Assembly (NCBI GenBank): GCA_964502635.1
Contig: CAZCXI010000001.1
Span: 1 to 60,447, forward strand
Direction of reading: 5' to 3'
DNA: 60,447 nt
From: an uncultured Desulfobacterales bacterium
Lineage (GTDB): Bacteria; Desulfobacterota; Desulfobacteria; Desulfobacterales; C00003060
Shown: positions 25,676-55,529 of the stretch, in pieces
Layout of the letters: every line of letters starts with the position of its first letter
Position numbering within the stretch: the stretch's first letter is position 1
Notes under the pieces: model-generated
What the model saw: the letters and a program-made list of their open reading frames with translations, nothing else
Databases searched by the model: none
What the model was told of the DNA's origin: nothing
Program-made: the position numbers and the translations under genes

Positions 25676-26125
25676 AGAACACTCCTGGCAGATTGATATG
25701 CATAGACCATCGGCCCTCCGGTTCTGAGAGGCAGGCCCCAGGTGAGCATGACTCACCAGGGGCCTGAAACAGGAGAAAAGAGATGAAGCCTAGCAGCTTC
25801 ATCCGAACACGGGGCCTTTGAGTGGAGGGTCAGCGCCATCAAGATCCCGTATGTTTATTATCTCAACACGTCACACAAGAAGTCCAATAGCAAATATCAA
25901 TCAATCGGTATGGCTGATATGGAAAAAATCTATAGAATAGACAAGAACCCTTAGGATTGTATTGTAAATTTCAATAACGATAGCCCACCATTATTGATAT
26001 TACATATTTGACACCTGTGTCTAAAGTAGAGAAAATTGATCGATTTTGCCTAATGGCAGCGCTTTGCCTGCTGAGCAAAAGCAGCTGTGGACGGCCTCAC
26101 TTCCGCCATGAAAAGGAAAGGTCAT

Positions 26126-26722
26126 ATGGAAACATTGAACTGCCGAGGGCTTGCCTGTCCCCAACCGGTGCTCCGGACAAAGCAGTTTATTGAATCCAAT
26201 CCGCAGGCCTTAGAATTCACGGTCGTAGTCGACAATGCCGCCTCTGCCCAAAACGTGTTGCGCTTTGTGGAAAGCCAGGGTTGCACTGCGTCCCTTCAGC
26301 AAACGGGTTCTGAGTTTGAGATTAAGGCCGTGAGGTCCCAAGAGACCATGGGTGAACCGGCTGAAAAAGACGTGGCAGAGACCAGCCAAAAAACCCTGGT
26401 ACTGATCACCAAAAATACCATGGGCTCTGGTGACGATCTTTTGGGAGCGGGCCTCATGTTGAATTTCTTGAAAACGATTAACGAGATGGGAGAGTCCCTC
26501 TGGAGACTGATTTTCTTAAACAGCGGGGTGAAGCTGACCATCGAAGGGGCCGAGACTTTGCCCGTCATACAACAACTCGAGGCCGAGGGTGTCAGTGTCC
26601 TGGTATGCGGCACCTGTTTGAATCATTTTAATCTGCTGGAGCAAAAAAAGGTCGGAGAAACCACCAACATGTTGGACATTGTCACCAGCATGCAACTTGC
26701 CGACAAAGTGATTAGCCCTTGA
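26126..26722 (+). CDS. yedF: Sulfurtransferase-like selenium-metabolism protein YedF (TusA domain plus DsrE-like domain)
   Basis: N-terminal TusA motif RGLACPQPVL, and a C-terminal domain with VLITKNTMGSGDDLLG and VCGTCLNHF, as in long-form YedF. Confidence 0.75.
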   Translation: METLNCRGLACPQPVLRTKQFIESNPQALEFTVVVDNAASAQNVLRFVESQGCTASLQQTGSEFEIKAVRSQETMGEPAEKDVAETSQKTLVLITKNTMGSGDDLLGAGLMLNFLKTINEMGESLWRLIFLNSGVKLTIEGAETLPVIQQLEAEGVSVLVCGTCLNHFNLLEQKKVGETTNMLDIVTSMQLADKVISP

Positions 26723-26761: not shown

Positions 26762-28036
26762 ATGAATGAACAGTACGAAAAAATGTGGGAGGAACTCGGG
26801 CTGGATATCACCGCCCATGACGGGCTGTTGAAGGTCCTTGGAAAATTCTATGGTGATATCTATCTCACCCAGGATAACCGCCTAAAAGGAATGGAATATT
26901 TAGATTTCGTGCTGTCGGAAGTCCACGGCCTTCGCATCAAGGAACTCCAAGATGCCAAAGCTGCCGGCAAGAAGATCATTGGCACCTTCTGCGTGTTTGT
27001 ACCGGAAGAGCTGATTTGGGCTGTCAACGGTGTGGCGATCGGCCTTTGCGCAGGCGCTGAGATCGGCAAAGAAGCAGCTGAAAAGATCTTACCCCGAAGC
27101 ACCTGTGCTTTGATCAAGTCCTTTGTGGGCTTTAAGCTCTCAAGGCTCTGTCCCTATATTGAATGCTGCGATTTAGTCGTCGGCGAAACCACCTGTGATG
27201 GCAAAAAAAAGGCCTACGAGATTTTCGAAGAATACGCGCCTATGTATATCCTGGAACTCCCGCAGATGAAAGGGCCATCCGATCGAGCCCTCTTTAGGAA
27301 TGAGGTGTTGAAGTTTAAGGCAAAGATGGAAGAGATCAGTGCCCAAGAAATTACGGCTGAAAAACTAAGGGAGGCTATCCAACTCATCAACAGCCGGCGG
27401 AGGGCTTTACAGAGGCTTAATGAGCTGCGCAAAGCCGTTCCCACACCGATTTCCGGAAGGGACGCACTGCTTATCAATCAGATCTCATTCTACGATGACC
27501 CAGTGCGGTTTACTGCCAAGATCAATGAGCTTTGTGATGAGCTTGAAAAGCGTGTGGCACAGGGCAAGGGGATCGTTGAAGATGGCATCCCGCGACTCAT
27601 GACCTCCGGGTGCCCCATGGCCGTGCCCAATTGGAAACTTCCTTACGTCGTGGAGTCCTCCGGGGCGGTCATCGTGGGAGAGGAATCGTGCATCGGCACA
27701 CGAAACACAAGGGATCTCGTGGATGAGACGGGCAACTCAGTGGAACATATGATCGAGGCCATCGTGGATCGTTATATGCGTATTGACTGTGCCTGCTTTA
27801 CCCCCAATCCTGAACGTCTCGAACACATTGTGGAGATGGCCAAGGACCTTAAGGTGGATGGTGTCATCCATTACGCCCTTCAATTCTGTCATCCTTATAC
27901 CATTGAAGCTTACAAGGTGGAAAAGGTCCTGGAGACGGAGAATATTCCTGTGCTCAGGATTGAGACAGACTACAGCATGGAAGACGTTGAACAGCTTAAA
28001 ACGCGCGTGGAGGCCTTCGTGGAAATTGTGAAGTAA
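26762..28036 (+). CDS. 2-hydroxyacyl-CoA-dehydratase-family protein, probably a double-cubane-cluster-type anaerobic reductase
   Basis: 424 aa, with conserved Cys spaced as in HgdB/BcrC-like proteins (FCVFVPEE, STCALIKS, GETTCDGKKK, SGCPM, EESCIG, DCACFT, LQFCHPY). Followed by its ATPase partner. Confidence 0.65.
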   Translation: MNEQYEKMWEELGLDITAHDGLLKVLGKFYGDIYLTQDNRLKGMEYLDFVLSEVHGLRIKELQDAKAAGKKIIGTFCVFVPEELIWAVNGVAIGLCAGAEIGKEAAEKILPRSTCALIKSFVGFKLSRLCPYIECCDLVVGETTCDGKKKAYEIFEEYAPMYILELPQMKGPSDRALFRNEVLKFKAKMEEISAQEITAEKLREAIQLINSRRRALQRLNELRKAVPTPISGRDALLINQISFYDDPVRFTAKINELCDELEKRVAQGKGIVEDGIPRLMTSGCPMAVPNWKLPYVVESSGAVIVGEESCIGTRNTRDLVDETGNSVEHMIEAIVDRYMRIDCACFTPNPERLEHIVEMAKDLKVDGVIHYALQFCHPYTIEAYKVEKVLETENIPVLRIETDYSMEDVEQLKTRVEAFVEIVK

Positions 28037-28050
28037 GCGGGGATACTTAG

Positions 28051-28800
28051 GTGCGTGTTGCCGGCATTGACATCGGTTCCCGAACCATAGAGCTGGTGGT
28101 GTTGAACGAAAGAGGGATTGTTCTAAGCAAACGGGCGGATTCTGGCTTTGACCCAACGGCGGGTGTCAAAAAACTCCTTGAAGAGGTTGACTATGACCGG
28201 ATCATGGCCACAGGCTATGGACGCCATCTCTTTGAACTTTCCTTTGTTGCGCCTACAGTCACAGAAATAAAGGCATACGCCATGGGCGCTCAGGCCATGT
28301 TTCGTGGCGTACGCACTATCCTTGATATTGGGGGCCAGGATTCCAAGGCCATTGCGGTAAACGATGTTGGCAAAGTGACCAAGTTCGAGATGAACGATCG
28401 CTGTGCGGCAGGAACGGGAAAGTTTCTTGAGATCATGGCAAGCAGCCTTGGCTACAGCCTTGATGACTTCGGGCGTGAGGCCCTGAAGGCTGAGAAGGAG
28501 CTTCAAATCAGCAGCATGTGTACGGTCTTTGCCGAATCTGAGGTCACCTCCCTGCTTGCCAAGGGGGAAAACCGGCGAGAAATTGCTATGGGTCTACACC
28601 ACTCTGTGGTGCGTCGTGCAGCTGGCATGCTGAGGCGGGTTTTGGTGGAAGGACCCGTTGTCTTTGCGGGAGGCGTGGCCAGGAATGCATGCATGCGTCA
28701 CCTGTTGGAAGAGACCCTCGAAAAAGAGATAACTGTTCCAGAAGACCCACAAATGGTGGGGGCCTATGGAGCAGCGTTGTTGGCAGCAGGCCAGGGATAG
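28051..28800 (+). CDS. Acyl-CoA dehydratase activase / BcrAD-BadFG-type ATPase (archerase)
   Basis: AGIDIGS phosphate-1 motif, MNDRCAAGTGKFLE cluster-ligand region and FAGGVARN. 249 aa. Confidence 0.85.
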   Translation: MRVAGIDIGSRTIELVVLNERGIVLSKRADSGFDPTAGVKKLLEEVDYDRIMATGYGRHLFELSFVAPTVTEIKAYAMGAQAMFRGVRTILDIGGQDSKAIAVNDVGKVTKFEMNDRCAAGTGKFLEIMASSLGYSLDDFGREALKAEKELQISSMCTVFAESEVTSLLAKGENRREIAMGLHHSVVRRAAGMLRRVLVEGPVVFAGGVARNACMRHLLEETLEKEITVPEDPQMVGAYGAALLAAGQG

Positions 28801-32277: not shown

Positions 32278-32479
32278 GACCGCATGCAAAATTTGGGGGG
32301 AATGGTAGCCCGAATGAGAAAGGACCACAACACCTCGTCACTCCCCTGCCTGGGTTTTCTGATTGGGAGGTCGGTTTGGCTCAGGCCCGAGGCAGCTGAC
32401 GAAGGAGTGCAGTACTGCAAGAATTGCCTTCTGGTTCCATCCATTCACTGTCTATTCCCCCCAAATTTTGCATGCGGTC
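32278..32479. repeat. 202-bp cassette bounded by perfect 26-bp inverted repeats, containing an inverted Tat-signal mini-ORF
   Basis: gaccgcatgcaaaatttggggggaat (32278-32303) is the exact reverse complement of 32454-32479. On the minus strand the interior encodes MDGTRRQFLQYCTPSSAASGLSQTD..., which is homologous to the start of the hydrogenase small subunit at 32637. Confidence 0.8.
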
Positions 32480-32636: not shown

Positions 32637-34001
32637 ATGAATTTGAGAATTACGAGAAGGCAGTTTCTACAGTATTGTACTGCCTCTGCCGCTGCCTTGG
32701 GCCTGAGCCAAACCGACCTCCTGAAGCTGGAAGAGGTTTTGGCCACACCCAACACGGGGTGTTCGAGCCCCACCCCCTCGGTGATCTGGCTTTCAGGACA
32801 GGCTTGCACGGCTTGCCAGATCTCCATGCTCAACAGGGTGGCCATGGTTACGGGGGGCTACTATGACGGTGACATGATCGATGCTCTGTATTCGACCGCA
32901 TCTCCGTTGCCGCCGCCCTATCCGCAAGCCCCCGTGGGCACGGGAACACCGGCGGACCCCGTGGGTCTGGAGCTCGATGTGGTCAAAGACGTGGCAGACT
33001 TGGTCGTTGGCGACGCGGTGAGTGCCGTGGTTCCCCAACTCCAGCCGTCCCCGGGAAGCCCGAGGGCAGGGTGGGCGCCATTTCCCAACGGCTACATCAC
33101 CCTGGAGTGGATCAGCACTACCATGGCCGGCGCAGGCGAGCTGACCGTGCGTCATCTCCAGAGCATCGTAGAAGGGGGACCCTTTATCCTGCTTTTGGAC
33201 GGGTCAATTCCCACGGCTTCGCCAAGCGACCCCACACTGCAGACGAGAAACGAAAAGGCCTGCTTTGTTCTTGACAATGTGGACTACCCGGAATGGCCGG
33301 CCGGAACCGGTGCCAAGGTCATCAGCGCACTGAACGCCGGGCCGGTCACGCTGGCCAACTGCCTGCGATGGATATGCGACACCAACGGTGCGAACTGCCT
33401 CGCGGCCATTGCCACAGGGACTTGTTCGTCCTATGGCGGAATCCCTGCGGCCCAGGGCAGCCCCACGGGGGCTACCTCCATGGAGGCTTTCTTTGCGCAA
33501 GAAGGAATTACCACGCCGGTGGTCAATGTGCCCGGCTGTCCGCCCCACCCGGATTGGATGGTCTATCCAGTGGCCTATTATCTGATCCACAGCGCCCTGC
33601 CGGAGCTGGATCAGTGGGGAAGGCCAAAGGCGGTCTTCAGCGGTTCTTCAGATGGCGAGCCCTTCTGCTACGACTGCCCGAACAAGCCCACCCAAGGGAC
33701 TCCCGATGCGGCTCAAGAGTTGGGGGATTCGGGTTGTTTGGGCGGCCTCGGGTGCAAAGGCCCTTACACCTTTGGTGATTGCCCGGTCCGTCAGAAGAAC
33801 ACGGCAGACGACGGTACGTTGATGAACTGGTGCGTAGGGGCCCAGGGATCAGGTGCTCCGTCAGGTCACGTGGGTAGTGGTATCGGTGAAAGCCGTCATC
33901 CCTGCCAGGGATGTATCCAACCCGATTTTCCGGATTGGTCCGGGTTGACAACATTCGATCAAAAAACCAACAGAAAAATCAAGGGATTCTATAACCCATA
34001 A
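32637..34001 (+). CDS. [NiFe]-hydrogenase small subunit, Tat-exported, unusually long
   Basis: Twin-arginine signal ITRRQFLQY and Fe-S ligand contexts GQACTACQIS, GTCSSYGG, PGCPPHPDW, CYDCP, GCLGGLGCKGPYTFGDCP and HPCQGC. No C-terminal transmembrane helix. Confidence 0.85.
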   Translation: MNLRITRRQFLQYCTASAAALGLSQTDLLKLEEVLATPNTGCSSPTPSVIWLSGQACTACQISMLNRVAMVTGGYYDGDMIDALYSTASPLPPPYPQAPVGTGTPADPVGLELDVVKDVADLVVGDAVSAVVPQLQPSPGSPRAGWAPFPNGYITLEWISTTMAGAGELTVRHLQSIVEGGPFILLLDGSIPTASPSDPTLQTRNEKACFVLDNVDYPEWPAGTGAKVISALNAGPVTLANCLRWICDTNGANCLAAIATGTCSSYGGIPAAQGSPTGATSMEAFFAQEGITTPVVNVPGCPPHPDWMVYPVAYYLIHSALPELDQWGRPKAVFSGSSDGEPFCYDCPNKPTQGTPDAAQELGDSGCLGGLGCKGPYTFGDCPVRQKNTADDGTLMNWCVGAQGSGAPSGHVGSGIGESRHPCQGCIQPDFPDWSGLTTFDQKTNRKIKGFYNP

Positions 34002-34019
34002 TAAGGAGGTGAGACAGAA

Positions 34020-36266
34020 ATGGCTAAGATCGTAAAGCTTGCTCCCATAGACCGAATTGAAGGGCATCTGGATATCGAAACGGTGGTCTCCGATGCCACA
34101 AAGCTGACCACTGACGCCAAGTGTCAGGCTGTCATGTTTAGGGGCATTGAGGAGATTATGAAAAAGAGAGACCCGAGGGATGCCCCCATTATCACGCAGC
34201 GCCCCTGTGGGGTCTGCCCCACGTCCCATGGTGTGGCCTCCAGCAAGAACATCGGAGATGCCTTTGGGTTTCGATGTGACAACGACTTCGTGAACGGGCC
34301 GGATCCCATCGACGTGCCCAACAACGGCCGTCTCCTGAGGAACTTGGCGCTGGGCTGCAATTATGTCATGTCTCACTTGGTCCATTTCTACCACTTGGTG
34401 GCTCTGGACTACGTGAACGTGAACAGCACAGGGCTCATCCCCAAGGGCTTTGCCTGCCCTAACTATGACGACCGGTTCTACGCCCGGGGCATTGATCCGA
34501 CGGGCAGCCTGGGGGCACCGGCCTATACGGTAAACAATATCGGCGGCGCGGCCGGTACAGTGCCTTCGCCTGTTGTGGGGGACCTGACCGCCTACTTTGC
34601 GAGCCAGTACGTGCGGGCCCTCAAGTTCCGGCGGATGGCCCATCAGATCCATGCGCTCTTTGCGGGCAAGATGCCCCACGTGTCTAATTTCACACCGGGT
34701 GCCATGACCAATAAGCCCTACGACTCCTCTCCAACCGGGGCGGATCCGGCTGTGGTTCAGAAGTTCAGGGAAATCCTGTATGCCGGACCGGGTTATGCCC
34801 TTTCAGACAGGACCCATCCCCTGAACGGACAACCGATCACCGTGAGTAACCCCCACCCGGAGAGCATCCTCGGTTTCATCGGAAAACCCACGGACTTCTG
34901 GAATTGGGTCAACGGGGTGAGTGTCACGGGAACACCGCTGGGCGGTCCACTCGGCGGGCCCTTTGATCCTGCGGCACTACCGCTGTGGGCCCAGGTAGGA
35001 GACGGCTCGGGGACGGCGGGTACCAACTGGCAGCCCTACATCGGCACCCATCTCTTTGATGTCGTGGCCGCCGCCCATGTATTCCCCGAGTATTTCTGGA
35101 TCGGCACCGGAGTGAACCGGCATCTCGCCTGGGGCGCCTTTGAGGGCGCGGTTGGCGATGCGCCATGGATCGGGACAGGCCATGCAGACAACCGGCTCTG
35201 CACCCGATTCCGAACCCACGTCAATCCCACCACGGGGGCTGTCATCGGCTGGTATCCCGTGGACCACCTGGATTCTGTGGAAATGGTGGACAGTTCCTGG
35301 TACGACGACACCGCGGGCAAGAAGCGGCACATGTGGCAGGGCAAGACCAAGTGGAACCCGGACAAGGCCGGGGCCTACAGCTATGCCAAATCCCCGAGGT
35401 ACTACAATGCCTCTTCGGGCACGGGTCATCCCGTGGGGCACTTGCCCTATGAAGTGGGACCCCTTTCCCGGATGATGGCCAATGCCAAGTACGTGGTGGA
35501 CGATGGCGGTCTTGGAAATCCCGTGGTCTTAAATGCCGTGGTGAGCGGCGACCGGACGGGCTACTACCCGGGTATCCTCAGCGACGTGGATCAGACGCTC
35601 GTTCCCACCAATCCATGGATTGGTGGATCTGGGGTAGGAATCTTCCCGTCGGCTGGGCAAGCGCCCACCGATTTCACTGCCGGTCCCTATGGCTCGATCC
35701 TCTACGGGAATTACCTGAACGCCCTGGCGAGCCCCGCCGTTTATAAGAGCAACTATACGGGCGACGGTGTTCTCGACCGGATTGCGGCTCGGGCCTTGGA
35801 AACCTACTATGTGGCCAAGCATCTTTGGTATTGGTTCAACCAGCTCGATCCGAACGAAACATCCAATGTCACGCGACGTTACAACTGGGGCGAGGGCAAG
35901 GGCTGGAAGGAGTTCGTGCCCAAATACAGTAAAGGCGTAGGCTTGACTGAGGCCCCGCGGGGTGCTTTAGGCCACTGGATCAAGATTGGCAACAGAAAGA
36001 AAAAGAAGTTGAAGGGGAAGATCTCCAAATACCAGATCATTACCCCTACGGCCTGGCTGGTGAGTCCCAAGGTAGACGCGGGTCTGGGTGACGCCCACGG
36101 CCCCATGGAGGAATCCCTGGTTGGAACGCCCCTACAGATTTTCGACGAGCCCATTGAGCTCTTGAGAATCGTCCACTCCTTTGACCCGTGTCTCGCTTGC
36201 ACGGTGCATGTGATGACACCGAAAAAGGAGAAAGTGGCTGAGGCGATCGTCGAGCCCGCTGGCTAG
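34020..36266 (+). CDS. [NiFe]-hydrogenase large subunit, unusually long (748 aa)
   Basis: N-terminal RIEGH and RPCGVCPTSH motifs. C-terminal DPCLACTVH followed by an 18-aa extension. AAGGAGG RBS. Confidence 0.9.
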   Translation: MAKIVKLAPIDRIEGHLDIETVVSDATKLTTDAKCQAVMFRGIEEIMKKRDPRDAPIITQRPCGVCPTSHGVASSKNIGDAFGFRCDNDFVNGPDPIDVPNNGRLLRNLALGCNYVMSHLVHFYHLVALDYVNVNSTGLIPKGFACPNYDDRFYARGIDPTGSLGAPAYTVNNIGGAAGTVPSPVVGDLTAYFASQYVRALKFRRMAHQIHALFAGKMPHVSNFTPGAMTNKPYDSSPTGADPAVVQKFREILYAGPGYALSDRTHPLNGQPITVSNPHPESILGFIGKPTDFWNWVNGVSVTGTPLGGPLGGPFDPAALPLWAQVGDGSGTAGTNWQPYIGTHLFDVVAAAHVFPEYFWIGTGVNRHLAWGAFEGAVGDAPWIGTGHADNRLCTRFRTHVNPTTGAVIGWYPVDHLDSVEMVDSSWYDDTAGKKRHMWQGKTKWNPDKAGAYSYAKSPRYYNASSGTGHPVGHLPYEVGPLSRMMANAKYVVDDGGLGNPVVLNAVVSGDRTGYYPGILSDVDQTLVPTNPWIGGSGVGIFPSAGQAPTDFTAGPYGSILYGNYLNALASPAVYKSNYTGDGVLDRIAARALETYYVAKHLWYWFNQLDPNETSNVTRRYNWGEGKGWKEFVPKYSKGVGLTEAPRGALGHWIKIGNRKKKKLKGKISKYQIITPTAWLVSPKVDAGLGDAHGPMEESLVGTPLQIFDEPIELLRIVHSFDPCLACTVHVMTPKKEKVAEAIVEPAG

Positions 36267-37882: not shown

Positions 37883-38731
37883 TTAAGCATGAGATATGAG
37901 GCGTGCTGAGGGCTCTTGATGATCGGACCTGCTGTCATGATCCGATTGTGTCAAATACTCGTCTATAACCTTCTTTGTTTGCAACAATCCGTCAGTTTCT
38001 CTAACTTCAAGAACCCACCACTCGCAACCAATATCCCGCAGGATGTTCAGACGGTCTTCGATGTCTTCCAGTCGCTCGGGTGGTATATGTCCTACCCCGG
38101 AAACTTCCGTGTAATATACATGGGCATTGAGAGCGCGATCTGAATGAGGACTAACAAAATCCTCAATGCCATAGGACTGACTCCGGACCGACTCGCACGC
38201 GTGGGCGTGACCGATATCAAAAGTGACTGCAGCGCCGCTTCCTCGGATGAGTTTTTCAAAGAGGTGGGGCCTGCTCGTCCATCCCCAGGCGAGGTTCTCC
38301 AGGCAGATGGTTACCCCCCTGCGTGCACCGTATTGAACCAGGTTTGCCAGGTTCTCAATCGTTGCCTCCCATGACAGGGGCTCTGTGGAATCGTGGCCAA
38401 GGCCGATGTGGATTGTCAGGTATCGTCCTTCCACTTTAGAAACCAAGCGGATGATACGACGAAAAACGGCCTCGGCCGCCTTGGCCTCCCGTGGGTCCTC
38501 GTGGCCCAAGTCTATCTGATAAAAAGGACAGTGAAAACGAACCTCCAGGGAATCCAAAAGGGACAGGCTCCTCACCCATTTTGATTCTTCTAAAGGTGTT
38601 GCAGGCAGGATACTGGGATCGAACGACCAGTCGATGCCTGAAAACCCGTGACGAAGGGCAAATGCCCTGATCTCTGTGACCTCTTTCAGGAAATTGCACA
38701 TGGCCAATTTAGGTTTCATAGTGTTATTCAT
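37883..38731 (-). CDS. Sugar phosphate isomerase/epimerase (xylose-isomerase-like TIM barrel)
   Basis: 282 aa with the pattern of AP-endonuclease-2/xylose-isomerase-like barrels (ICLENL, FDIGHAH). Confidence 0.6.
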   Translation of the reverse strand: MNNTMKPKLAMCNFLKEVTEIRAFALRHGFSGIDWSFDPSILPATPLEESKWVRSLSLLDSLEVRFHCPFYQIDLGHEDPREAKAAEAVFRRIIRLVSKVEGRYLTIHIGLGHDSTEPLSWEATIENLANLVQYGARRGVTICLENLAWGWTSRPHLFEKLIRGSGAAVTFDIGHAHACESVRSQSYGIEDFVSPHSDRALNAHVYYTEVSGVGHIPPERLEDIEDRLNILRDIGCEWWVLEVRETDGLLQTKKVIDEYLTQSDHDSRSDHQEPSARLISHA

Positions 38732-38994
38732 ATTTGAAATGCCGATCCATCTCTTATTTTAGGTTCAATATAATTTTACATCGAATCAGGCAATAAAACA
38801 AATAGAAAATATCCATAATATTGGATACGATACCATAGGCAAAATCTATGGAGGGTTAGGTCAGGCAAGAACGGACCCTTTTCTTGGGTCGAAGGCAGCC
38901 CCCCCATAACAGAAATCTATGTGGGCCTCTTGAGTAGTTCTGGCTCGACCTCGTCAGCTAAAAAAACTTGACTTGGCTGGCCATGAAAAGCATC

Positions 38995-39011
38995 TATACA
39001 AAGTATGTATA
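38995..39011. promoter_or_regulatory. Candidate operator palindrome TATACA-N5-TGTATA upstream of the His-rich peptide gene
   Basis: Perfect 6+6 inverted repeat ending 22 nt before ATG 39034. A TTGACT -35-like hexamer lies at 38968-38973. Confidence 0.3.
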
Positions 39012-39033
39012 CCTTGTGAAAGGAGGATTTATC

Positions 39034-39165
39034 ATGAAAGGAACACACGAACACACCCATGGGCAAGATGAGCACGTCCACGATCACGATCACAACGGAG
39101 ACCATGGTCCCCACAGCCATGTGCATCCAGCTCATGAGACTGAACTGCATGATCACACGCACTAA
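39034..39165 (+). CDS. Histidine-rich small protein (43 aa), putative metal-binding
   Basis: AGGAGG RBS. The sequence MKGTHEHTHGQDEHVHDHDHNGDHGPHSHVHPAHETELHDHTH contains 15 His. Confidence 0.6.
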   Translation: MKGTHEHTHGQDEHVHDHDHNGDHGPHSHVHPAHETELHDHTH

Positions 39166-39185
39166 ATTTCTTTATTAGCTGCTTT

Positions 39186-39226
39186 GAACACAAGGCGAGC
39201 CAAGGAGGTACCCTTGTGTTCTTTCC
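39186..39226 (+). terminator. Hairpin after the His-rich gene
   Basis: gaacacaagg (39186-39195) pairs with ccttgtgttc (39212-39221), followed by ttt. The loop is 16 nt. Confidence 0.5.
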
Positions 39227-39347
39227 AAAAAACCAAGCCACTGTTCATTCCCCTGGGTTCCTATGAATAGTAGAGCCCTCGGGGTAAATGAGGGCAGGTA
39301 CTGGAATCTGGGGTAGCGGGACGGGTTTTTGCTGGCCCCAAAAAAGA

Positions 39348-39376
39348 TTGACAAAAGAGGGAAGGCGTGTTATTTT
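39348..39376 (+). promoter_or_regulatory. Sigma70-like promoter
   Basis: TTGACA (39348-39353), a 17-nt spacer, then TATTTT (39371-39376). Confidence 0.5.
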
Positions 39377-39383
39377 AAAAACG

Positions 39384-39506
39384 TTTTGAGATAGGTATGA
39401 AGCCTGTCACAAGTTAGCTCAAGCTTGTCTTCACAGTTAAGCGAATCTAAGCCACGGAGGCAGTCTTTCTCTGAAGAGGAAGAATCCTTGCGTGGCTTTT
39501 TGTTTT
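39384..39506 (+). ncRNA. Candidate ~120-nt small RNA or terminator-containing 5' leader
   Basis: Bounded by the promoter above and a strong intrinsic terminator (aagccacg 39449-39456 / cgtggctt 39491-39498, plus TTTTGTTTT). Contains no ORF longer than 6 codons. Confidence 0.4.
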
Positions 39507-39585
39507 CTTGGTGGTTCAACGAGCTGATGGAATAGTTCGATTATCGACTTTCCGAGGTATAGTCCCTCTTTTATACAGGAGATCT

Positions 39586-39816
39586 ATGAAATCGACGAGC
39601 GATCGGGAAAAGCTGAGGGTCCTTTTGGTTCACTGGGTGGCGCACAACCGCGAACACGCAGAGACGTTTCGACAATGGGCTCGGCGTGCTGGGCAGTTGG
39701 GATCTAGAGAAGCCGCTTCAAAACTCGAGGCTGCAGTTCAGGAAATGGACGTCGTGAATAACCGTCTCCTGACCGCCCTGGACATACTCGGAGGACCTCT
39801 GGAACACCACCATTGA
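39586..39816 (+). CDS. Hypothetical small helical protein ending in HHH
   Basis: AGGAG RBS before ATG 39586. 76 aa with HWVAHNREHAETF and a C-terminal LEHHH. Confidence 0.45.
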   Translation: MKSTSDREKLRVLLVHWVAHNREHAETFRQWARRAGQLGSREAASKLEAAVQEMDVVNNRLLTALDILGGPLEHHH

Positions 39817-39945
39817 TATCCGGGGCAGCACATGGAGAATGACATCAGCTACCGCATCTAAAACACACCAAATGAGGAAAGGGGGTGGGATGAAACAGAA
39901 AGCCCACAACCTATCATCTAAAGGCGCTTACTCCGGTTCTGTCCA

Positions 39946-41046
39946 TCATAAAAGCCATCTTTTAAAGAAAGAGTCATGAATTCTCCATCCTTTGTTTTTA
40001 TCCAAAACCCCCCCCTTCTCCAGGTTCGATAACGCTGCAGTGACTTGTGATGCCGCCCTGAAACCGAATCTGTCCAGATTGTGCGCGGCAAATATGTTTT
40101 TCCCTGCTGTTCCCGCTATGAGTTTTAGCGCCCTCCTTTGGTTTAAAGTCAATGAATCCCATACATAAGAATATTCAGGTATCCGCTTTTCCACTATTCT
40201 GCGTTCTACCTTGTCAAGGAGATCAAAAGATAATTCCTCTTCCATCCAAATGTTGAAGAAGAACTCCTGGACATACATCGGGTGATTTTCGCACCTTTCT
40301 ATGACATCCTCAATTAATCTATCCTTAATCCTCCTATTTGCTTTTCGATATAACCTCTTAATCCAATCCACATAATGAATGGTTTTGATTTTCCCTAACG
40401 GATAACTCGTAGCCAGCATATAAAAGGCCCGGTTCCTATCATTGAACATCTCAGTAATTAAGTGCCTTTGACTTCCAGCGAAAATGTATGAGATTCTTTC
40501 GTGTCTTTGTATCGACCTTCTAAGGCGTTTCTCAAAGGCATTCCCGCCGTAAGCTGCCACTTCCTGGAACTCATCGAATGCAACAACCATTTTTTTCTTT
40601 TTTGACAGGTCCTCTATAATTGCGAATATTTCATCAATCGTTCTATCTTCTACAGCCCTGTTGAAAACCGGTAATGCCGTGGGCAGCCCGGTAACGGGGT
40701 CGACACTGAAGTTTACCCCAATACTCCTGACCCCTTCACGGATCATCTTTATAAGGCGGTTCATCTGTGACTCGACAGCGCTTAAGCCTCTGAGAAAGGA
40801 AGCGATAAATTCCTCGGTACGCGTTGTCCCATAGAGATCTATGTATACAGGCTTTACATTTCTAAGACCCTTAAATATTCTTAAAATTAGCGAGCTTTTG
40901 CCATGGCGCCTGTGTGAGTACAACAGCACGTTTTGAGAACTCTCTATGTACTGCCTTAATTCCTTCTGCTCCTTTTCTCTGTTGCAAAAGGCAGGTTCTT
41001 CAACGACACCTGAAAACTTGAACGGGTTATCCATTTTTTTCACCAA
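39946..41046 (-). CDS. AAA-type ATP-binding protein (archaeal-ATPase/DUF234-like architecture)
   Basis: Walker A SHRRHGKSS and Walker B MVVAFDEFQ. The gene is visibly more AT-rich than its neighbours. Confidence 0.65.
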   Translation of the reverse strand: MVKKMDNPFKFSGVVEEPAFCNREKEQKELRQYIESSQNVLLYSHRRHGKSSLILRIFKGLRNVKPVYIDLYGTTRTEEFIASFLRGLSAVESQMNRLIKMIREGVRSIGVNFSVDPVTGLPTALPVFNRAVEDRTIDEIFAIIEDLSKKKKMVVAFDEFQEVAAYGGNAFEKRLRRSIQRHERISYIFAGSQRHLITEMFNDRNRAFYMLATSYPLGKIKTIHYVDWIKRLYRKANRRIKDRLIEDVIERCENHPMYVQEFFFNIWMEEELSFDLLDKVERRIVEKRIPEYSYVWDSLTLNQRRALKLIAGTAGKNIFAAHNLDRFGFRAASQVTAALSNLEKGGVLDKNKGWRIHDSFFKRWLL

Positions 41047-41440
41047 AATTTACGTTGCTATCGACTCATATTATCGGTAATCTTATTACCCTATTTACGT
41101 AATGTCAACAAAATCCTTATCGCCCCGGGAATTAAAAATGGCATTTTGTTGATTGTTGAAACACTGCCACCTCCTCCTATTGCTCAGCCCAGAGATGCAT
41201 CATCGTTTATGGCAGGGAATTGATGATTGGCGATCTGGCAATCCAGTTGTTAATGGCCGTGGGTGTTGCTTCGTCGCCTTGCCGGTGTACAGCGTGCACA
41301 TCGGGTGCCTACTTGGAACAAAAGGGACGAGGTGAGGGCTTCGTGGTAGGTGTTGCTCAGTGCCATTGTTCCTTGAGGATTCGAGGTGTGTTGAGGAGGA
41401 GAAGCCCTCCCTCCTTATATCCCTTTCGTTCTTAGACAGC

Positions 41441-41644
41441 GACCATGTTGCATACAAGGCTTGGGGAGACAGACACTGACGGCGTATGCATGTCACTAGA
41501 AGGCAATTCTTGCAGTACTGCACAACCTCCGCACCTGCTTTGGGTCTGAGCCCGACCGACCTCCTGAAGCCAGAGAAGGCACGGGCAGAACAAAATGATT
41601 GTTTCCATCCGTCAGCGCTATTCCCCCCAAACTCTGCATGCGGT
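41441..41644. repeat. Second, degenerate copy of the 32278-32479 cassette, in the opposite orientation, with an orphan Tat-signal ORF start
   Basis: attccccccaaactctgcatgcggt (41620-41644) matches 32454-32478 with 2 mismatches. The left end gaccatgttgcatacaaggcttgggga is degenerate. The interior encodes MHVTRRQFLQYCTTSAPALGLSPTDLLK on the plus strand with no hydrogenase body behind it. Confidence 0.7.
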
Positions 41645-42199
41645 TATTTGCTTTTCTTCCCCCTCCACCAAACGAGAACCCCAGAGACTCCAAAGATGAT
41701 GCAAATCCCCATCAAAGCCTTTTCGTACCTGGAAAGTGGACTTTCACCGGTCTCCCCACGTTGCTCGTTTGCTTGCAACACCAGCGCCTCGTTAACTGGC
41801 ACCCTGACCTCTAGCCGATGCCCCATTTCATCGTCCACGACCACCTTCCAATCGCCCGGCGCATCTGGGAAAAAACAGAACCGACCGTTTCTATCTGTTC
41901 TTCCCGATTGAAAAGTCAACCCTTTTGATCTTGCCATCCTCATAGTACTGGAATTGGTCCATGACCTCATCTGCATTGCTGTCGATTTCCAGCTTGATGA
42001 GCTTGCCACCCTTACCAAAGTGAGCGATCTGGTCGATCCTGCCATCTCCGGTGGTATCGCGCTTAAGGACATCTCGGCTTGCCCACCCTGATTCAGGGCG
42101 CAACGGAATCACCAAAGTGAACACAATCAACAGGGAGATAAAGTAATTCACAAAGGATGCCTCGTCAGGAGCAACAAAAAAAGCCAGGTAGCACTGCAA
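41644..42199 (-). pseudogene. Frameshifted gene for a membrane-anchored protein (DxDGDG-like motif plus Ig-like/carboxypeptidase-regulatory-like domain plus C-terminal TM)
   Basis: ORFs 41891..42199 and 41644..42072 overlap in different frames. Removing one T from the minus-strand TTTT run (plus-strand AAAA 41911-41914) gives a continuous ...EDGKIKRVDFQSGRTDRNGRFCFFPDAPGDWKVVV... reading frame. Confidence 0.6.
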
Positions 42200-42260
42200 G
42201 CTTCTGCTCGCTTGCCTTCCTGGCTTCGCGTTTCTTTCTACTTAAATTATGTGGTTTGGT

Positions 42261-42290
42261 AAAAAATAAGACGCAACTTCTTGATGCGCC
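42261..42290 (-). terminator. Intrinsic terminator downstream of selD
   Basis: On the minus strand GGCGCA-tcaagaagt-TGCGTC (one G-U pair) is followed by TTATTTTTT. Confidence 0.6.
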
Positions 42291-42373
42291 TTTATTTTAG
42301 AATGGCAGAAAAAGCAGACTGTGTCAAAATTGTTTTGGATGCCGTGTCTTTACGCCTTCGCACAAAGGCCAAC

Positions 42374-43441
42374 TCAAGCGATTTGCAGTTTGCCCTTCGC
42401 ATCTAAGCCAATGACCTCGCCGATAATCGTCGCTGATCGCACTCCCTCATGTTTTAATTCCTCAAGGCAGGCCTCCCCCTCATCCGCACCAATGGAGATA
42501 ACCAACCCGCCTGAGGTTTGGGGATCAAAGATGAGGTCCATGAGAACCGTTTCCACGCCAGGCTTGATTTCCACCATGTGCTCACAGAAATGCCTAGTCG
42601 CATAACTTCCGGCCGGTATCAGACCCATCAAGGCATACTCCTTGGCCTCAGGAATGATCGGGATCTTGTCAGCATAGACAGCGATCTCCACATGGCTGGC
42701 TCTGGCCATTTCCAAAAGGTGTCCCCCGAGGCCAAAACCGGTCACGTCCGTACAGGCATGAGTTTTGTATTTCAGCATAATCTGTGATGCCTGGCCGTTA
42801 AGGGTCGCGGCGATCTCGATCATCGTCTCCAGCGCTTTTTCGCTAGCCAATTTCCCCTTAACGGCGGTGGCAATGATACCCGTTCCGATGGGTTTGGTCA
42901 GTATGAGTTGATCCCCGACCTCGGTACCTTGATTGGCCAGGATTTTCTGGGGATGGACAACGCCTGTCACAGAAAGGCCATACTTAAGCTCCTGATCATC
43001 CACACTGTGTCCCCCTAGCAGGACCGCACCTGCCTCGTGAATCTTTTCCAGACCCCCTCGCAGGATTTCTTTGAGGATCTCCTTAGGCATATCCGTGATT
43101 GGAAAACAGACGATGTTCATAGCGGTCAGCGGCCTGCCACCCATGGCGTAGACATCGCTTAAGGCATTGGCTGCCGCAATGCGGCCGAAGTGATAGGGGT
43201 TGTTTACGATAGGCGTAAAAAAATCGAGGGTCTGTACCAGGGCCATATCGTCGTTCAGCTTATAGACGCCGGCATCATCAGAGGTCTCTATGCCTACAAG
43301 GAGATTAGGGTGCCTAATCACGGGCAGGTCCCTCATCACCTCTTCCAGGTCCCCTGGACTCAGTTTGGCAGCTCAGCCCGATGCCCTAACCTTTTCGGTC
43401 AAGTTAATAGGGTCATCGAGGGGGCTCAACGCATCAGGCAT
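42374..43441 (-). CDS. selD: Selenide, water dikinase (selenophosphate synthetase), selenocysteine-containing form
   Basis: The 321-aa ORF carries DDAGVY, GGHSVDD and TDVTGFGL motifs. It extends upstream through an in-frame TGA (43373-43375) to ATG 43441, giving MPDALSPLDDPINLTEKVRASG-U-AAKLSPGDL, the canonical G-(C/U)-x-x-K SelD active site. Confidence 0.9.
43344..43375 (-). promoter_or_regulatory. Sec UGA codon plus candidate SECIS hairpin of selD
   Basis: UGA, then 14 nt downstream UCCAGG-GGA-CCUGGA (43358-43344), a G-rich apical loop at the distance expected for bacterial SECIS elements. Confidence 0.55.
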
Positions 43442-44336
43442 ATTTCTTGGCAGCGCACCTTCCATCGCCTTCCTTTGCTATCTCCTCCAAGACCGACTCC
43501 AAGGCCTTTGGGATCTCCTTGACTATTGCAGCCACCTGTGTTGCCGGGGTTGGATTGGCAAGGGCACCCGCCAGGCGATTCACCCTGGCAGCGATGGTCG
43601 CCGCCTGTGCCACGGGGTATCCAGCGTAGGTGAGTGCGGCCACGATGCCCGTCAGCGTATCTCCTGTGCCACCAATGGGCTCCAGGGTCGTCACGTTCGG
43701 GGTGTCAACAGCAGCCAACAGCCCGTCCTTGGTGCATATATAATCTTTCGACCCCTTGATCAATAGTGTTTTGGCAGCATTTTCCCCTTCAAATGCCCTT
43801 TTGATCAGATCAGGAACGTTCTTCTCCTCGTGAAGAATGAAACTCCGGGTGTAAAACGGGTGAGGGGCCAACTCGTCGGCCAAGAAGGCCAATTCTCCGA
43901 TGTCAGGAGTAAAAAGGTCGTAACATGGCGAAAACCCGCTCATTTTGGCCGCATACATGTAACCTGCATCGGCAATCAGCAGCGGGAGTTTGCCTCTTTC
44001 TTCCAAGGCCAACAAGATCCGGTTATGCCAGTCAACATCAGGCTGAAGGTAATGAAAGGTAACAACCTTAGCACCCATAGCTGGAAGCCGGGTCTTCAGA
44101 TGCTCGTATAGCTTTCTGCTGCCGTCTCCTACCCCCTCATCTCCTACGAGAAAACAGAAAGGCTTGGAGAGGCCAAGCGTCTCACATGCCATGGATGTGG
44201 CGGCAATCATGGCAGGTGTCCCTCGGTTGACCGACGTTTCATGGCCATCCAAAAACAAGCAATCCCCCTTCAGTGTAACCGTCCCTGAAACCAGGGGGTA
44301 ATACTTATCCGGAACCGTACCGATCAAAGCGAGCAT
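43434..44336 (-). CDS. YjeF_C-like / ribokinase-fold carbohydrate-kinase-family protein of unknown role
   Basis: GGTGDTLTG anion-hole motif near the C-terminus. 300 aa. Overlaps the selD start by 8 nt and the upstream gene by 13 nt. Confidence 0.6.
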   Translation of the reverse strand: MLALIGTVPDKYYPLVSGTVTLKGDCLFLDGHETSVNRGTPAMIAATSMACETLGLSKPFCFLVGDEGVGDGSRKLYEHLKTRLPAMGAKVVTFHYLQPDVDWHNRILLALEERGKLPLLIADAGYMYAAKMSGFSPCYDLFTPDIGELAFLADELAPHPFYTRSFILHEEKNVPDLIKRAFEGENAAKTLLIKGSKDYICTKDGLLAAVDTPNVTTLEPIGGTGDTLTGIVAALTYAGYPVAQAATIAARVNRLAGALANPTPATQVAAIVKEIPKALESVLEEIAKEGDGRCAAKKYA

Positions 44337-44857
44337 TGACGCTTTATCTCTTCATAAGCCAATTGCAGGGCATACCCGCAAAGGGTATGACCAATTTCCC
44401 TCGGAGCAGGCGACTGTCGAAGATCTTTTCCCACCAGCATGGCCCCCAGGTATGGCACATCCGGGCAACCGCCCCCGGAAATATTCACAATCTCAAGGGT
44501 CTCTTTCTCTATCGTAAGTTTCATGTTGGCCGCGCGCACCATAAGGTATTGCCCATAATCTGTTGTCTTGAACAGTTCAACCGGTTTGAGGAGCGGATCA
44601 TCCACAGGCACTGCTTCCAACGGTTGAACCTTATTAGCTTCCAGTACCCTCAAAATATTCAACTGTTCGACCAGGGGAAATTCGATCACCATGTCACAGC
44701 CGGTCCGCAGCTCGGGGGGCGGCCCCATGACACGAACCTTCCACCCCTTTTTCTCCAAAAGGGATTTGGCCTTGATCACTTCGCTGGTATTGTGAAAGGA
44801 AAGAAACCCTCGATCCGGGCTCTTTTGCTGGGAGGCAGCCCTTTTTCCAAATGCCAT
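44324..44857 (-). CDS. DUF3343-like (putative Se/S carrier) domain protein with an extra C-terminal Cys-containing half
   Basis: The N-terminal FHNTSEVIKAKSLLEKKGWKVRVMGPPPELRTGCDMVIEF fits my recollection of DUF3343. The C-terminal half contains SGGGCPDVPYL. 177 aa. Confidence 0.5.
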   Translation of the reverse strand: MAFGKRAASQQKSPDRGFLSFHNTSEVIKAKSLLEKKGWKVRVMGPPPELRTGCDMVIEFPLVEQLNILRVLEANKVQPLEAVPVDDPLLKPVELFKTTDYGQYLMVRAANMKLTIEKETLEIVNISGGGCPDVPYLGAMLVGKDLRQSPAPREIGHTLCGYALQLAYEEIKRQCSL

Positions 44858-44863
44858 GGCTCT

Positions 44864-45082
44864 TTACTCTTTCTTGATCAGGATCTTGTACCCTGTACCT
44901 GATTCGGCAACGCCCGCTACCTCCCAACCCTGGCTTTCGGCCGCACGGCTCACGTTTTCCTTTGACGTGTCCGTGTCCACCAGGACCTCAATTTCCCCTT
45001 TGTTAAGGTCCCTGATTCTATTCAAGGTCATCAGCACAGGTTGTGGGCAAGAAAGGCCGCTTGCATCAACGATTTCAGCCAT
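44864..45082 (-). CDS. TusA-like sulfur/selenium carrier
   Basis: SGLSCPQPVL motif. GGAGA RBS before ATG 45082. 72 aa. Confidence 0.8.
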   Translation of the reverse strand: MAEIVDASGLSCPQPVLMTLNRIRDLNKGEIEVLVDTDTSKENVSRAAESQGWEVAGVAESGTGYKILIKKE

Positions 45083-45099
45083 CGTAATCTCCTTCCTTG

Positions 45100-46191
45100 T
45101 TAGGCCTTTTGTCTCATGGTCAGTCCAATGAACGAGCACACCAGAAGGCCAATAATGACAGCAGCAATACCGTGAGGACCAACCCCTTTGGGTGAGCTTG
45201 CCAGCCCAAAATTGTGGGCAAAACCAGCACCAACAATCATACCCAGGACAAAGACGGCCGCATCACCATCACCTTCTCCTGCCAGGAATAACTGGCGGCC
45301 CGGGCAGCCACCGGCAAGGCAAAAGGCTAGCCCCGCCACGACCATGCCCCCGAAGTTCCAAAGCTGCATAGTGTGAGCAACGGGTTGTTTGGCAAATCCT
45401 GGATGAAACTGTCCCACAATCAGGTTGGTGAGAAAAGCGAAGGCAATCAGTGCCAGCACACCGTAGAAAAGATAAGGTATGCGAAACAAAATCAGGTCTC
45501 GAAAGGCCCCCATGGTGCAAAATCGGCTACGCTGTGCCAGAAAACCGATGGCAAGACCTATGACAAGAGAAAGTGCAATAGACGCATGCATGGCCCCCGG
45601 ACCCTTCATGCTGTAAAAAAGGATCCCGCTTTTTGGCTCCCCTTTGATCTGGGGAAAACTTAGGAGCAGCACCAGAAAGCCAAGCATGATCAGGGGCATG
45701 AGCCAGCCCACAGATACGTATGTCTTGTTGCTCCGGCCAAGGTTATATCCGCCCTTGAGGAAAAAGGTGCCGATCCATATGCCAACAATCAATCCAAGGA
45801 GGCCAAGGATGGCGTTCCCGTCACCCGCGGAAAGACGCAGCATGGCACGCCAGGGGCACCCCAAGAAAACCAGCGCCCCGATCATGGCAAAGACTCCCAG
45901 CACAAAGCGCACAATAGGAGCAGAACCAGCCCTCGGCCTGAACTCCCTGAACGCATAGGCTGCAATCAACGCCCCGAGGACAAAACCGATGATCTCAGGG
46001 CGCATGTACTGAACCACGGCCGCCCGATGGATGCCGATGGCGCCTGCGATGTCCCGTTCAAAGCAGGCCACGCACACCCCCATATTTCCCGGGTTGCCAA
46101 ATTTTTGCAACAGAGGAGCAAACACGCCAATGAATGCCCCAACAGACACGATTCCCCACCGCGTGCCCAGAAAGTTTTTGACTTGCCCCAT
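45100..46191 (-). CDS. yedE: YedE-family putative selenium/sulfur transporter
   Basis: Polytopic membrane protein with the GNPGNMGVCVACFERD motif and a second CPGRQ half-site. 363 aa. Confidence 0.75.
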   Translation of the reverse strand: MGQVKNFLGTRWGIVSVGAFIGVFAPLLQKFGNPGNMGVCVACFERDIAGAIGIHRAAVVQYMRPEIIGFVLGALIAAYAFREFRPRAGSAPIVRFVLGVFAMIGALVFLGCPWRAMLRLSAGDGNAILGLLGLIVGIWIGTFFLKGGYNLGRSNKTYVSVGWLMPLIMLGFLVLLLSFPQIKGEPKSGILFYSMKGPGAMHASIALSLVIGLAIGFLAQRSRFCTMGAFRDLILFRIPYLFYGVLALIAFAFLTNLIVGQFHPGFAKQPVAHTMQLWNFGGMVVAGLAFCLAGGCPGRQLFLAGEGDGDAAVFVLGMIVGAGFAHNFGLASSPKGVGPHGIAAVIIGLLVCSFIGLTMRQKA

Positions 46192-49267: not shown

Positions 49268-49285
49268 TCGGATGGAAGAGCGCCT

Positions 49286-52899: not shown

Positions 52900-53061
52900 G
52901 CCATACCATTGATGAACGGACAATACTTTCCAATGATAACAGATTCCCAATCGGTATAGTAAACTTCAGGGGAAAATCCCCATGGCACCCAAAAAGGCTC
53001 TGTGCATTGTACAAGACATATATCTGCACGGGGCCTGTTTTTTCTGACAGGAGTTGTTCAA

Positions 53062-55438: not shown

Positions 55439-55529
55439 TGCCGGACGGGCGACATCGAGATGACCCTCCGGGTGCCGTGTTGACCCTGTTGGCAATGTCT
55501 CCTTAAACAATGGTTGTAGGTTCCTAAAC

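Follow-up and report, generated by a model that had tools for sequence, protein, structure and literature searches.

The usual account of the role of selenium in hydrogenases rests on a single ligand, the C-terminal terminal ligand of the active site. Natural selenocysteine (Sec, U) is usually located at the terminal C-terminal Cys, and the engineered variants C76U and C79U of Hyd-1, with Sec in the N-terminal motif, kept only 3% and 13% of the native activity, respectively (Evans et al. 2021, PMC8020662). N-terminal CXXU, UXXC and UXXU motifs have been described for Group 4 enzymes only, and UXXC and UXXU were called previously unrecognised (Takano et al. 2026, PMC13582414). According to that paper, Sec is C-terminal in Groups 1 and 3, with two Group 1 CXXU exceptions that are cited to Baltazar 2011. 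A selenoproteome review from 2026 lists only UxxC for hydrogenase large subunits. In the literature searched, which covered few subscription journals, we came across no account of a UXXU clade in Group 1, nor of the enlarged architecture reported here; N-terminal UXXU is known there only for Group 4 (PMC13582414). The locus under study encodes a [NiFe]-hydrogenase of an uncultured Desulfobacterales bacterium. The stretch of DNA that was analysed, called the window in the following, is the entire contig CAZCXI010000001.1 of 60,447 nt. It contains two adjacent plus-strand open reading frames (ORFs), 18 nt apart, for the small subunit (SSU) and the large subunit (LSU) of the enzyme (Table 1).

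With a probability of roughly 70%, we read the two genes as encoding a functional, soluble, periplasmic H2-uptake [NiFe]-hydrogenase, which would be the Cys-type member of a rare, enlarged Group 1 lineage in uncultured Desulfobacterota. We also lean, with less assurance, towards a wider reading, namely that the enzyme is an early-branching all-Cys member of a previously unrecognised Group 1 subgroup, in the crown of which both N-terminal Ni ligands (the terminal and the Ni-Fe bridging ligand) are naturally Sec. This crown appears to combine a single Sec insertion sequence (SECIS) for both UGAs with Cys725, all-Cys FeS clusters, and a dedicated cytochrome in the operon.

Both genes have the features of an intact enzyme. 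The reading is uninterrupted over the 1,202 codons of the two ORFs, and every metal ligand and catalytic residue is kept. The LSU matches PF00374 at 299.3 bits (Pfam, cutoff 25.8) and contains the L1 and L2 motifs, which places it among the Group 1 large subunits. All four Ni-Fe ligands are present (C63, C66, C724, and C727), together with the glutamate of RIEGH at residue 12 and the arginine of EAPRG at residue 644. The SSU matches PF01058 and PF14720 (Pfam) as well as the domain TIGR01409 (NCBIfam) of the twin-arginine translocation (Tat) signal, and its Tat motif, ITRRQFLQY in the window, is kept across the clade described below. Its C-terminus is hydrophilic (…DWSGLTTFDQKTNRKIKGFYNP) and contains no transmembrane helix. 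A GGAGGG ribosome-binding sequence is located shortly 5' of the SSU start codon ATG. The ORF reading, the motif positions, and the Pfam and NCBIfam matches reproduced exactly the coordinates, lengths, and ligand motifs of the initial annotation, and its statement that the SSU lacks a C-terminal transmembrane helix agrees with the hydrophilic C-terminus. The GC contents at third codon positions of the two hydrogenase genes were 0.68 and 0.72, versus 0.55-0.65 for the neighbours. Horizontal transfer was considered, but these values are only modestly raised and the higher overall GC content stems in part from the Gly/Pro/Ala-rich composition, so that the evidence is not decisive.

For both subunits, the best PDB matches were the [NiFeSe] enzymes of Desulfomicrobium baculatum and Desulfovibrio vulgaris Hildenborough (E = 5e-64 for the LSU and 8e-43 for the SSU). 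The [NiFeSe]/group 1a structures ranked ahead of those of groups 1b, 1c, 1d, and 1e, with 204-220 bits for group 1a versus 166-178 bits for group 1b, and a Foldseek search with the AlphaFold model resulted in the same ranking (template modelling (TM) scores of 0.62-0.64, normalised to the target). The best NCBIfam match was NF033181, with 373.6 bits versus a cutoff of 600, and the cutoffs of NF045518 (287.9 versus 780) and NF045520 (171.3 versus 470) were missed as well. Judged from these matches, the window enzyme belongs to the Group 1 hydrogenases, is closest to group 1a, and lies outside every curated equivalog. With the Hys-type [NiFeSe] enzymes (1cc1, 4kl8, and 2wpn; HydDB group 1a) it shares Tat export, a soluble heterodimer without a membrane anchor, three predicted [4Fe-4S] clusters, a four-Cys medial cluster, and a C-terminal tail of the LSU. 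In contrast to them, it has Cys and not Sec at L2 (DPCLAC, encoded by sense codons, instead of DPUxxC), the His of the distal cluster is replaced by Cys, and both subunits are longer. Its clade mates also have Cys at L2 and place Sec in the N-terminal rather than the C-terminal motif. The characteristics of Hyn-type group 1b enzymes were not found either, in that the medial site has four Cys versus a [3Fe-4S] cluster and the window contains no ORF with several CxxCH motifs.

The ligands of the FeS clusters were derived from an alignment of 34 SSU sequences, in which 12 Cys of the SSU were invariant or nearly so; the ligands are seen and the clusters are predicted from them. C57, C60, C263, and C301 would bind the proximal cluster, while C382, C399, C423, and C426 would bind the medial cluster, which has four Cys like that of the [NiFeSe] enzymes. 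C399 is located in an invariant NWC and aligns with the Cys of INWCVE in 1cc1_S, so that a medial [4Fe-4S] cluster is predicted as in the Hys type, in keeping with the rule of three [4Fe-4S] clusters given for such enzymes in PMC8020662. The predicted distal ligands are C344, C347, C367, and C373, and the His-Cys3 ligation of the Hys type is absent from the window SSU. The distal cluster of group 1 enzymes normally has a His ligand, and an all-Cys version is unusual for Group 1. C344 was invariant in the 34 sequences, and in a separate, locus-derived alignment one locus (L087) had a Gly at this position. By its ligands, the SSU appears to carry three all-Cys [4Fe-4S] clusters, including the distal one.

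The oversize of both subunits that the initial annotation had pointed out is real: the LSU comprises 748 aa versus about 485-500 aa, and the SSU 454 aa versus about 283-317 aa, in the [NiFeSe] Hys enzymes. Alignment with group 1a-like relatives of normal size showed an excess of about 217 residues in the LSU, divided among about 12 segments of which 233-277, 304-346, and 504-546 are the largest, and of about 132 residues in the SSU, mostly at residues 69-117 and 125-151, which amounts to about 350 extra residues for both subunits together. The placement of the SSU insertion directly after ISMLNRV was correct, but the LSU excess does not form one central block, as had been proposed, and is dispersed over the 12 or so segments. 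The insertions are found throughout the clade (8% gaps in the LSU), with identities of 37% in the insertions versus 59% in the core for the LSU, and 29% versus 57% for the SSU. AlphaFold models of the LSU and the SSU had predicted local distance difference test (pLDDT) values of 61.6 and 60.8 and predicted TM (pTM) scores of 0.70 and 0.66, respectively. The N-terminus of the LSU was modelled poorly because most alignment rows lack that part. The LSU insertions 233-277 and 304-346 were among the best-predicted parts (pLDDT 72-92), and in the model they look like structured surface elaborations and not like disordered linkers.

A protein search yielded about 65 LSU clusters with identities of 42-67% and, for the SSU, about 80 clusters of 400-512 aa, every one of them from metagenomes or metagenome-assembled genomes (MAGs). 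At 50% clustering, only about six full-length representatives and about ten fragments were present among 1.84 billion proteins. An alignment-based scan of a genome collection, the counts of which are lower bounds, revealed the long form in at least three genomes among the best 80 genome matches, and all three are Thermodesulfobacteriota/Desulfobacteria (Desulfobacterota) MAGs; the scan with a single protein query gave no match. Across these sequences, the oversize is no isolated case and marks a rare clade that is known from metagenomes and Desulfobacterota MAGs only. The initial annotation would have abandoned its view of the enzyme if the lengths and insertions had been typical of a described subgroup. 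They are typical of a clade, yet that view stands because no published description of this clade was found in the literature searched. A second enlarged clade was detected at about 33% identity (LSU 640-670 aa, SSU about 415-490 aa; for example L010, a Thermodesulfovibrionales MAG). It is Tat-signalled as well, but its proteins are shorter and mostly of the Cys type (RHCGVC / DFCIACAVH), and the SSU insertions differ.

Most database LSU entries of the window clade begin just past the L1 motif, because both Cys codons of L1 are TGA (in L004 the frame reads …APRT-TGA-GV-TGA-PITHG…). Fifteen such Sec-type loci were read at the DNA level (L004, L007-L009, L087, L089-L095, and L168-L170). In all 15, which originate from different samples, TGA is present at both L1 Cys positions and nowhere else in frame, and the LSUs with both TGAs read through comprise 758-826 aa. 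An identical 7-bp hairpin, AUGGCUC-GGC-GAGCCAU, is also present in 15/15. Its stem starts 10 nt after the second UGA, and the start of its loop is 26 nt away from the first UGA and 17 nt away from the second. Among 12 aligned Sec-type loci, none of the 17 hairpin sites was variable versus 18 of 58 in the flanks, and the respective numbers for third codon positions were 0 of 6 versus 12 of 19 (hypergeometric p of about 0.005 for all sites and about 0.01 for third codon positions). The hairpin is absent from the four Cys-type loci (the window, L001, L005, and L167). Covariation was sought in the putative SECIS of the main clade and was not found, every hairpin position being invariant. The support for a SECIS therefore comes from conservation, from co-occurrence with TGA, and from a different hairpin in a locus of the second enlarged clade: L100 (353-380) contains RH-TGA-GV-TGA-PIGH and, at the same place, the 7-bp hairpin GCGCAUC-GUC-GAUGUGC. 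More than one lineage of Group 1 may therefore have gained or retained the double-Sec motif.

Of 64 other LSU clusters, five had an intact RxCGxC, 48 started within about 60 residues after L1, and 11 were fragments, and therefore roughly 90% of the informative members appear to be of the Sec type. By these counts, about 90% of the clade appear to be putative double-selenocysteine enzymes (RT-U-GV-U-PITH). L2 position 725 is Cys in 10/10 aligned Sec-type and Leu in 3/3 aligned Cys-type sequences. The recoding in the clade mates of the window enzyme is of the type described for the N-terminal CXXU/UXXC/UXXU variants of Group 4 (PMC13582414), with two UGAs three codons apart in the L1 motif and, for both of them, one downstream SECIS-like hairpin with a G in the apical loop. 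However, those Group 4 enzymes are cytoplasm-facing, membrane-bound, and energy-converting, whereas this clade consists of Tat-exported Group 1 enzymes with a cytochrome partner. The window copy itself is CXXC, with the codons TGT and TGC and no hairpin. In Hyd-1 of E. coli, the variants C76U and C79U (PMC8020662) contain Sec at the same two N-terminal Ni ligands, terminal and bridging, that are encoded by TGA in the window relatives. Those variants are single, artificial, and of group 1d, whereas the relatives appear to combine both and to have an extra Cys at L2 position 725.

It is unlikely that the paired TGAs do not encode Sec, and are either read as Cys by a suppressor of the tRNA-ReC type or mark inactivated genes. 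UXXU genomes often also encode tRNA-ReC-like tRNAs (PMC13582414), so that one or both UGAs might be read as Cys, and the invariant hairpin offers no base-pair covariation in favour of a SECIS. However, frames that are otherwise open over 758-826 codons and that contain exactly two TGAs, at exactly the two Cys positions, in 15 of 15 loci argue against this explanation. So do the lack of variable sites in the hairpin, its absence from the Cys-type loci, and the different hairpin sequence at the same place in the sister clade. Moreover, decoding by tRNA-ReC is also SECIS-dependent, which implies recoding and not inactivation.

A neighbour-joining tree (493 columns, 100 bootstraps) grouped the window with L001 and P0003 (100%) and all other clade members together (99%), with P0009 and then L005 branching off before the Sec-type crown. 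The second enlarged clade was the sister group (100%), and the window clade formed a long branch nested among normal-size 1a-like sequences. In this topology, and with the reserve that a long branch in a neighbour-joining tree demands, the window copy would belong to the earliest-branching lineage of the clade. At the same level of inference, one gain of UGxU would be more parsimonious than three reversions to Cys. As the window lineage branches first, the UGxU form is most simply read as derived from an enzyme like that of the window.

The genetic context differs between the two types of loci. In the Sec-type loci, a secreted cytochrome of 676-897 aa with 7-8 CxxCH motifs was found in 10 cases, directly 5' of the SSU gene in nine loci and 8 kb downstream in L007. 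It showed weak matches to c7, c3, and MtrC domains and has a TIG-like, β-rich C-terminal part. The operon order is cytochrome, SSU, LSU (split by gene callers at the TGAs), sometimes a SEC-C/CxxCxxCC protein, and a HycI-type protease; the protease is encoded in 11 loci, and a SurA-like peptidyl-prolyl isomerase in five. In the window, no homolog of these partners (cytochrome, SEC-C/CxxCxxCC protein, HycI, and SurA) was found. The initial annotation had described the enzyme as stand-alone, without a cytochrome, a HybA/HybB partner, a membrane anchor, a maturation protease, or a hyp gene. None of these was found on the 60-kb contig, and "stand-alone" is true for the contig and the Cys-type sister lineage, but most relatives have the cytochrome and HycI in the operon.

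All four Cys-type loci encode a protein of 441-446 aa upstream of the hydrogenase, which has no visible signal peptide and no redox motif, and searches of Pfam, NCBIfam, and PDB with the window protein revealed no family. The window, L001, and L005 share a selenium-utilisation cluster with YedE, TusA/YedF, a DUF3343-type Se/S carrier, a Carb_kinase-like protein, and SelD. L001 and L005 additionally contain SelB next to the hydrogenase, while SelB is absent from the window contig. L001 keeps SSU, LSU, and HycI together. In L005 (6595-10702; LSU 794 aa, DNCLAC) and L167 (575-4530; LSU 762 aa, DYCLAC), the protein of about 445 aa is located directly upstream of the LSU gene. These orphan LSUs may be functional, may pair with an SSU encoded elsewhere, or may be decaying.

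Periplasmic H2 uptake that feeds a c-type cytochrome encoded elsewhere in the genome is the most likely function, as predicted from the sequences. The active-site cofactor would be inserted with the help of Hyp proteins, and the LSU tail would then be cut by a HycI-type protease. Since HycI is encoded adjacently in relatives and is absent from the contig, the protease gene would have to lie elsewhere in the genome. The Tat signal of the SSU would carry the folded heterodimer across the membrane. In the periplasm, H2 would be oxidised, and the electrons would pass via the three clusters to the c-type cytochrome, and from there on to the membrane complexes of a sulfate or sulfur reducer. The surface on which this large cytochrome partner docks is probably shaped by the insertions and by the altered distal cluster.

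Several points weigh against an active uptake enzyme in such a pathway. The maturation and the electron acceptor are assumed, with no protease, hyp, cytochrome, or SelB gene on the 60-kb contig. The direction of catalysis, uptake or evolution, is not readable from the sequence. Both structure models are of moderate quality only (pLDDT about 61), the tree is based on neighbour-joining only, and an SSU gene is missing altogether from two other Cys-type loci, L005 and L167. In addition, the locus bears scars of rearrangement, namely two extra copies of the SSU 5' end and a low-GC stretch of about 3.6 kb that is inserted relative to the syntenic L005.

One alternative is that the operon is a decaying or silent remnant, left behind after the loss of the cytochrome and protease genes and possibly after a change from Sec to Cys, in which case the enzyme would have ceased to be matured or used and would be becoming a pseudogene product. 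HycI, the cytochrome, and SelB, all missing from the contig, adjoin the hydrogenase or lie near it in relatives, the SSU 5' stubs at 32366-32452 and 41495-41579 and the foreign low-GC insertion would fit decay, and two Cys-type loci keep only the LSU. Nevertheless, we regard a remnant as quite improbable, in view of two ORFs that are intact throughout with all metal ligands and catalytic residues, the ribosome-binding sequence in front of the SSU gene, and a sister locus, L001, that retains SSU, LSU, and HycI. The upstream stub is also present in L001, and is thus old and not a recent scar. Alternatively, the enzyme could be functional and have a partner other than a cytochrome, for example a periplasmic sulfur/polysulfide carrier or another FeS protein, or it could mainly evolve H2, as [NiFeSe]-like enzymes with three [4Fe-4S] clusters can. 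Neither the window nor the other Cys-type loci (L001, L005, and L167) contain a cytochrome gene, and the His of the distal cluster is replaced by Cys; in Desulfovibrio enzymes, this His is reportedly important for cytochrome-directed electron transfer (H184 variants of D. fructosovorans). Around the locus, there are genes for sulfur/selenium trafficking, namely for YedE, TusA, a TusA-DsrE fusion, and a carrier of the DUF3343 type. Such a partner or direction is improbable all the same: Sec-type relatives with the same all-Cys distal cluster and the same insertions do carry the multiheme cytochrome gene directly upstream, and no alternative periplasmic redox partner is conserved beside the Cys-type genes. 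An uptake hydrogenase that delivers electrons to a cytochrome is the reading we prefer.

Table 1. Coordinates of the hydrogenase genes, their motifs and insertions, and two upstream features in the window.
Feature	Position	Strand	Remarks
Unknown-family protein, 441 aa	30782..32107	+	encoded 5' of the hydrogenase in each of the four Cys-type loci (window, L001, L005, L167)
Repeat unit upstream of the operon	32281..32476	.	contains an inverted copy (32366-32452) of the ~85-nt Tat-signal-encoding SSU 5' end
Hydrogenase small subunit (SSU)	32637..34001	+	454 aa; starts MNLRITRRQFLQY; Tat signal, 12 conserved Cys
Twin-arginine motif RRQFLQ, SSU residues 7-12	32655..32672	+	TIGR01409, 21.2 bits vs cutoff 16.7
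Main SSU insertion, residues 69-151	32841..33089	+	clade-conserved V116, D118, D121, L122, G125, D126
FCYDC, SSU residues 343-347	33663..33677	+	C344 at the position of the distal-cluster His (IHENC in 1cc1_S)
Hydrogenase large subunit (LSU), Cys-type	34020..36266	+	748 aa
L1 Ni-binding motif RPCGVCPTSH, LSU residues 61-70	34200..34229	+	Cys codons TGT, TGC; no SECIS-like hairpin downstream
LSU insertion 1, residues 233-277	34716..34850	+	model pLDDT 84-92
LSU insertion 2, residues 304-346	34929..35057	+	Gly/Pro-rich block quoted in the initial annotation; pLDDT 72-88
LSU insertion 3, residues 504-546	35529..35657	+	from alignment vs normal-size relatives
L2 motif DPCLACTVH, LSU residues 722-730	36183..36209	+	residue 725 is Leu
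LSU C-terminal extension, 18 residues after H730	36210..36263	+	removal by a HycI/HybD-type endopeptidase expected

The segment that encodes the Tat signal is present in three copies: besides the genuine SSU 5' end, there is one in inverted orientation 216 nt upstream and one in direct orientation 8.8 kb downstream. A perfect 23-nt inverted repeat (CGCATGCAAAATTTGGGGGGAAT) at 32281-32303 and 32454-32476 flanks the inverted copy, and the direct copy (41495-41579, in the region 41478-41642) is followed by a third copy of the 23-mer with two mismatches. The upstream repeat unit is 82% conserved at the same position in L001 (8282-8402). The stubs of the window and of L001 are alike at 80%, and the values for each stub versus its own gene are 71% and 55%. 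Pairing of the inverted stub with the SSU 5' coding region as a regulatory hairpin was tested and is not supported by these values, and there were no compensatory changes and no covariation with the 5' end of the gene. The unit could be a repeat element, a small ORF, or what is left of a divergent gene. The insertion of about 3.6 kb (38731-42374) was revealed by comparison with the syntenic L005 and is located between an AP_endonuc_2 gene and selD. It contains the third Tat-signal stub as well as an ATPase_2/AAA_14 gene (39946-41046) with a low GC content of 0.42, and is probably foreign or mobile DNA. Searches of the window with Rfam and ARAGORN gave no match.

The selD gene of the window (42374-43441, minus strand; TIGR00476, 367 bits) contains an in-frame TGA (43373-43375) at the canonical position …SG-U-AAK, which is followed by a 6-bp hairpin, and is itself a putative selenoprotein gene. 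The organism therefore probably decodes Sec despite its Cys-type hydrogenase. Genes for sulfur/selenium trafficking are present at 26087-26722 (the TusA-DsrE fusion) and 44324-46191 (YedE-TusA-DUF3343). This group of genes also comprises those for an HgdB-like dehydratase D-component (HGD-D family) and its BcrAD/BadFG-family activator ATPase at 26762-28800. A 155-aa ORF (18346-18813, plus strand) is probably a fragment of a catalase gene; its match to the Pfam catalase profile covers only the last approximately 57 positions. Eleven kb downstream of the hydrogenase, a plus-strand cluster (47265-51229) encodes DUF6599 and DUF362 proteins and a polyferredoxin-like protein of 647 aa with two Fer4_5 and further 4Fe-4S domains. 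It is the nearest candidate for an FeS protein, and nothing links it to the hydrogenase.

A second hydrogenase of the Mvh/Hdr type (group 3c-like), which the initial annotation had not mentioned, is encoded at 53002-58039 on the plus strand. The cluster comprises an HdrA-like protein of 674 aa (53002-55026), an MvhD-like protein (about 55046-55450), a small subunit of 325 aa (55530-56507), and a large subunit of 511 aa (56504-58039), and is followed by a TusA-like ORF (58042-58272, plus strand). It is entirely of the Cys type, without an in-frame TGA, and has no adjacent protease gene. Cluster mates of the window MvhA at identities of at least 90% carry the names of Desulfobacteraceae or Deltaproteobacteria MAGs. 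A further group of long hydrogenase-like proteins, of 700-840 aa (P0296, P0301, P0304, P0308, P0309, P0328, P0344, P0356, and P0380), has about 280-480 extra N-terminal residues. Their profile match stops at position 657, at the very end of the protein and directly ahead of the L2 Cys motif. They may be enzymes with a C-terminal Sec that are cut short at the TGA, possibly as fusions.

If the double-Sec interpretation is true, the UGxU phenomenon would extend to soluble Group 1 enzymes, for whose class crystal structures and protein film electrochemistry studies exist. A natural matched pair of Cys/Cys and Sec/Sec enzymes, with 49-54% identity and the same architecture, would then be available for testing selenium at both positions, and surviving Cys/Cys members such as the window copy would serve as natural controls. 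In the output of gene callers, each Sec-type LSU appears as two pieces, one of about 60 aa and one ORF that is truncated at the N-terminus, and metagenomic hydrogenase surveys may therefore misclassify or miss these members. At the electron-exit end, new questions are raised by the all-Cys distal cluster, by the approximately 350 extra residues, and by the large TIG-like multiheme cytochrome as the apparent partner, and the findings may bear on H2-linked electron transfer in uncultured sediment Desulfobacterota.

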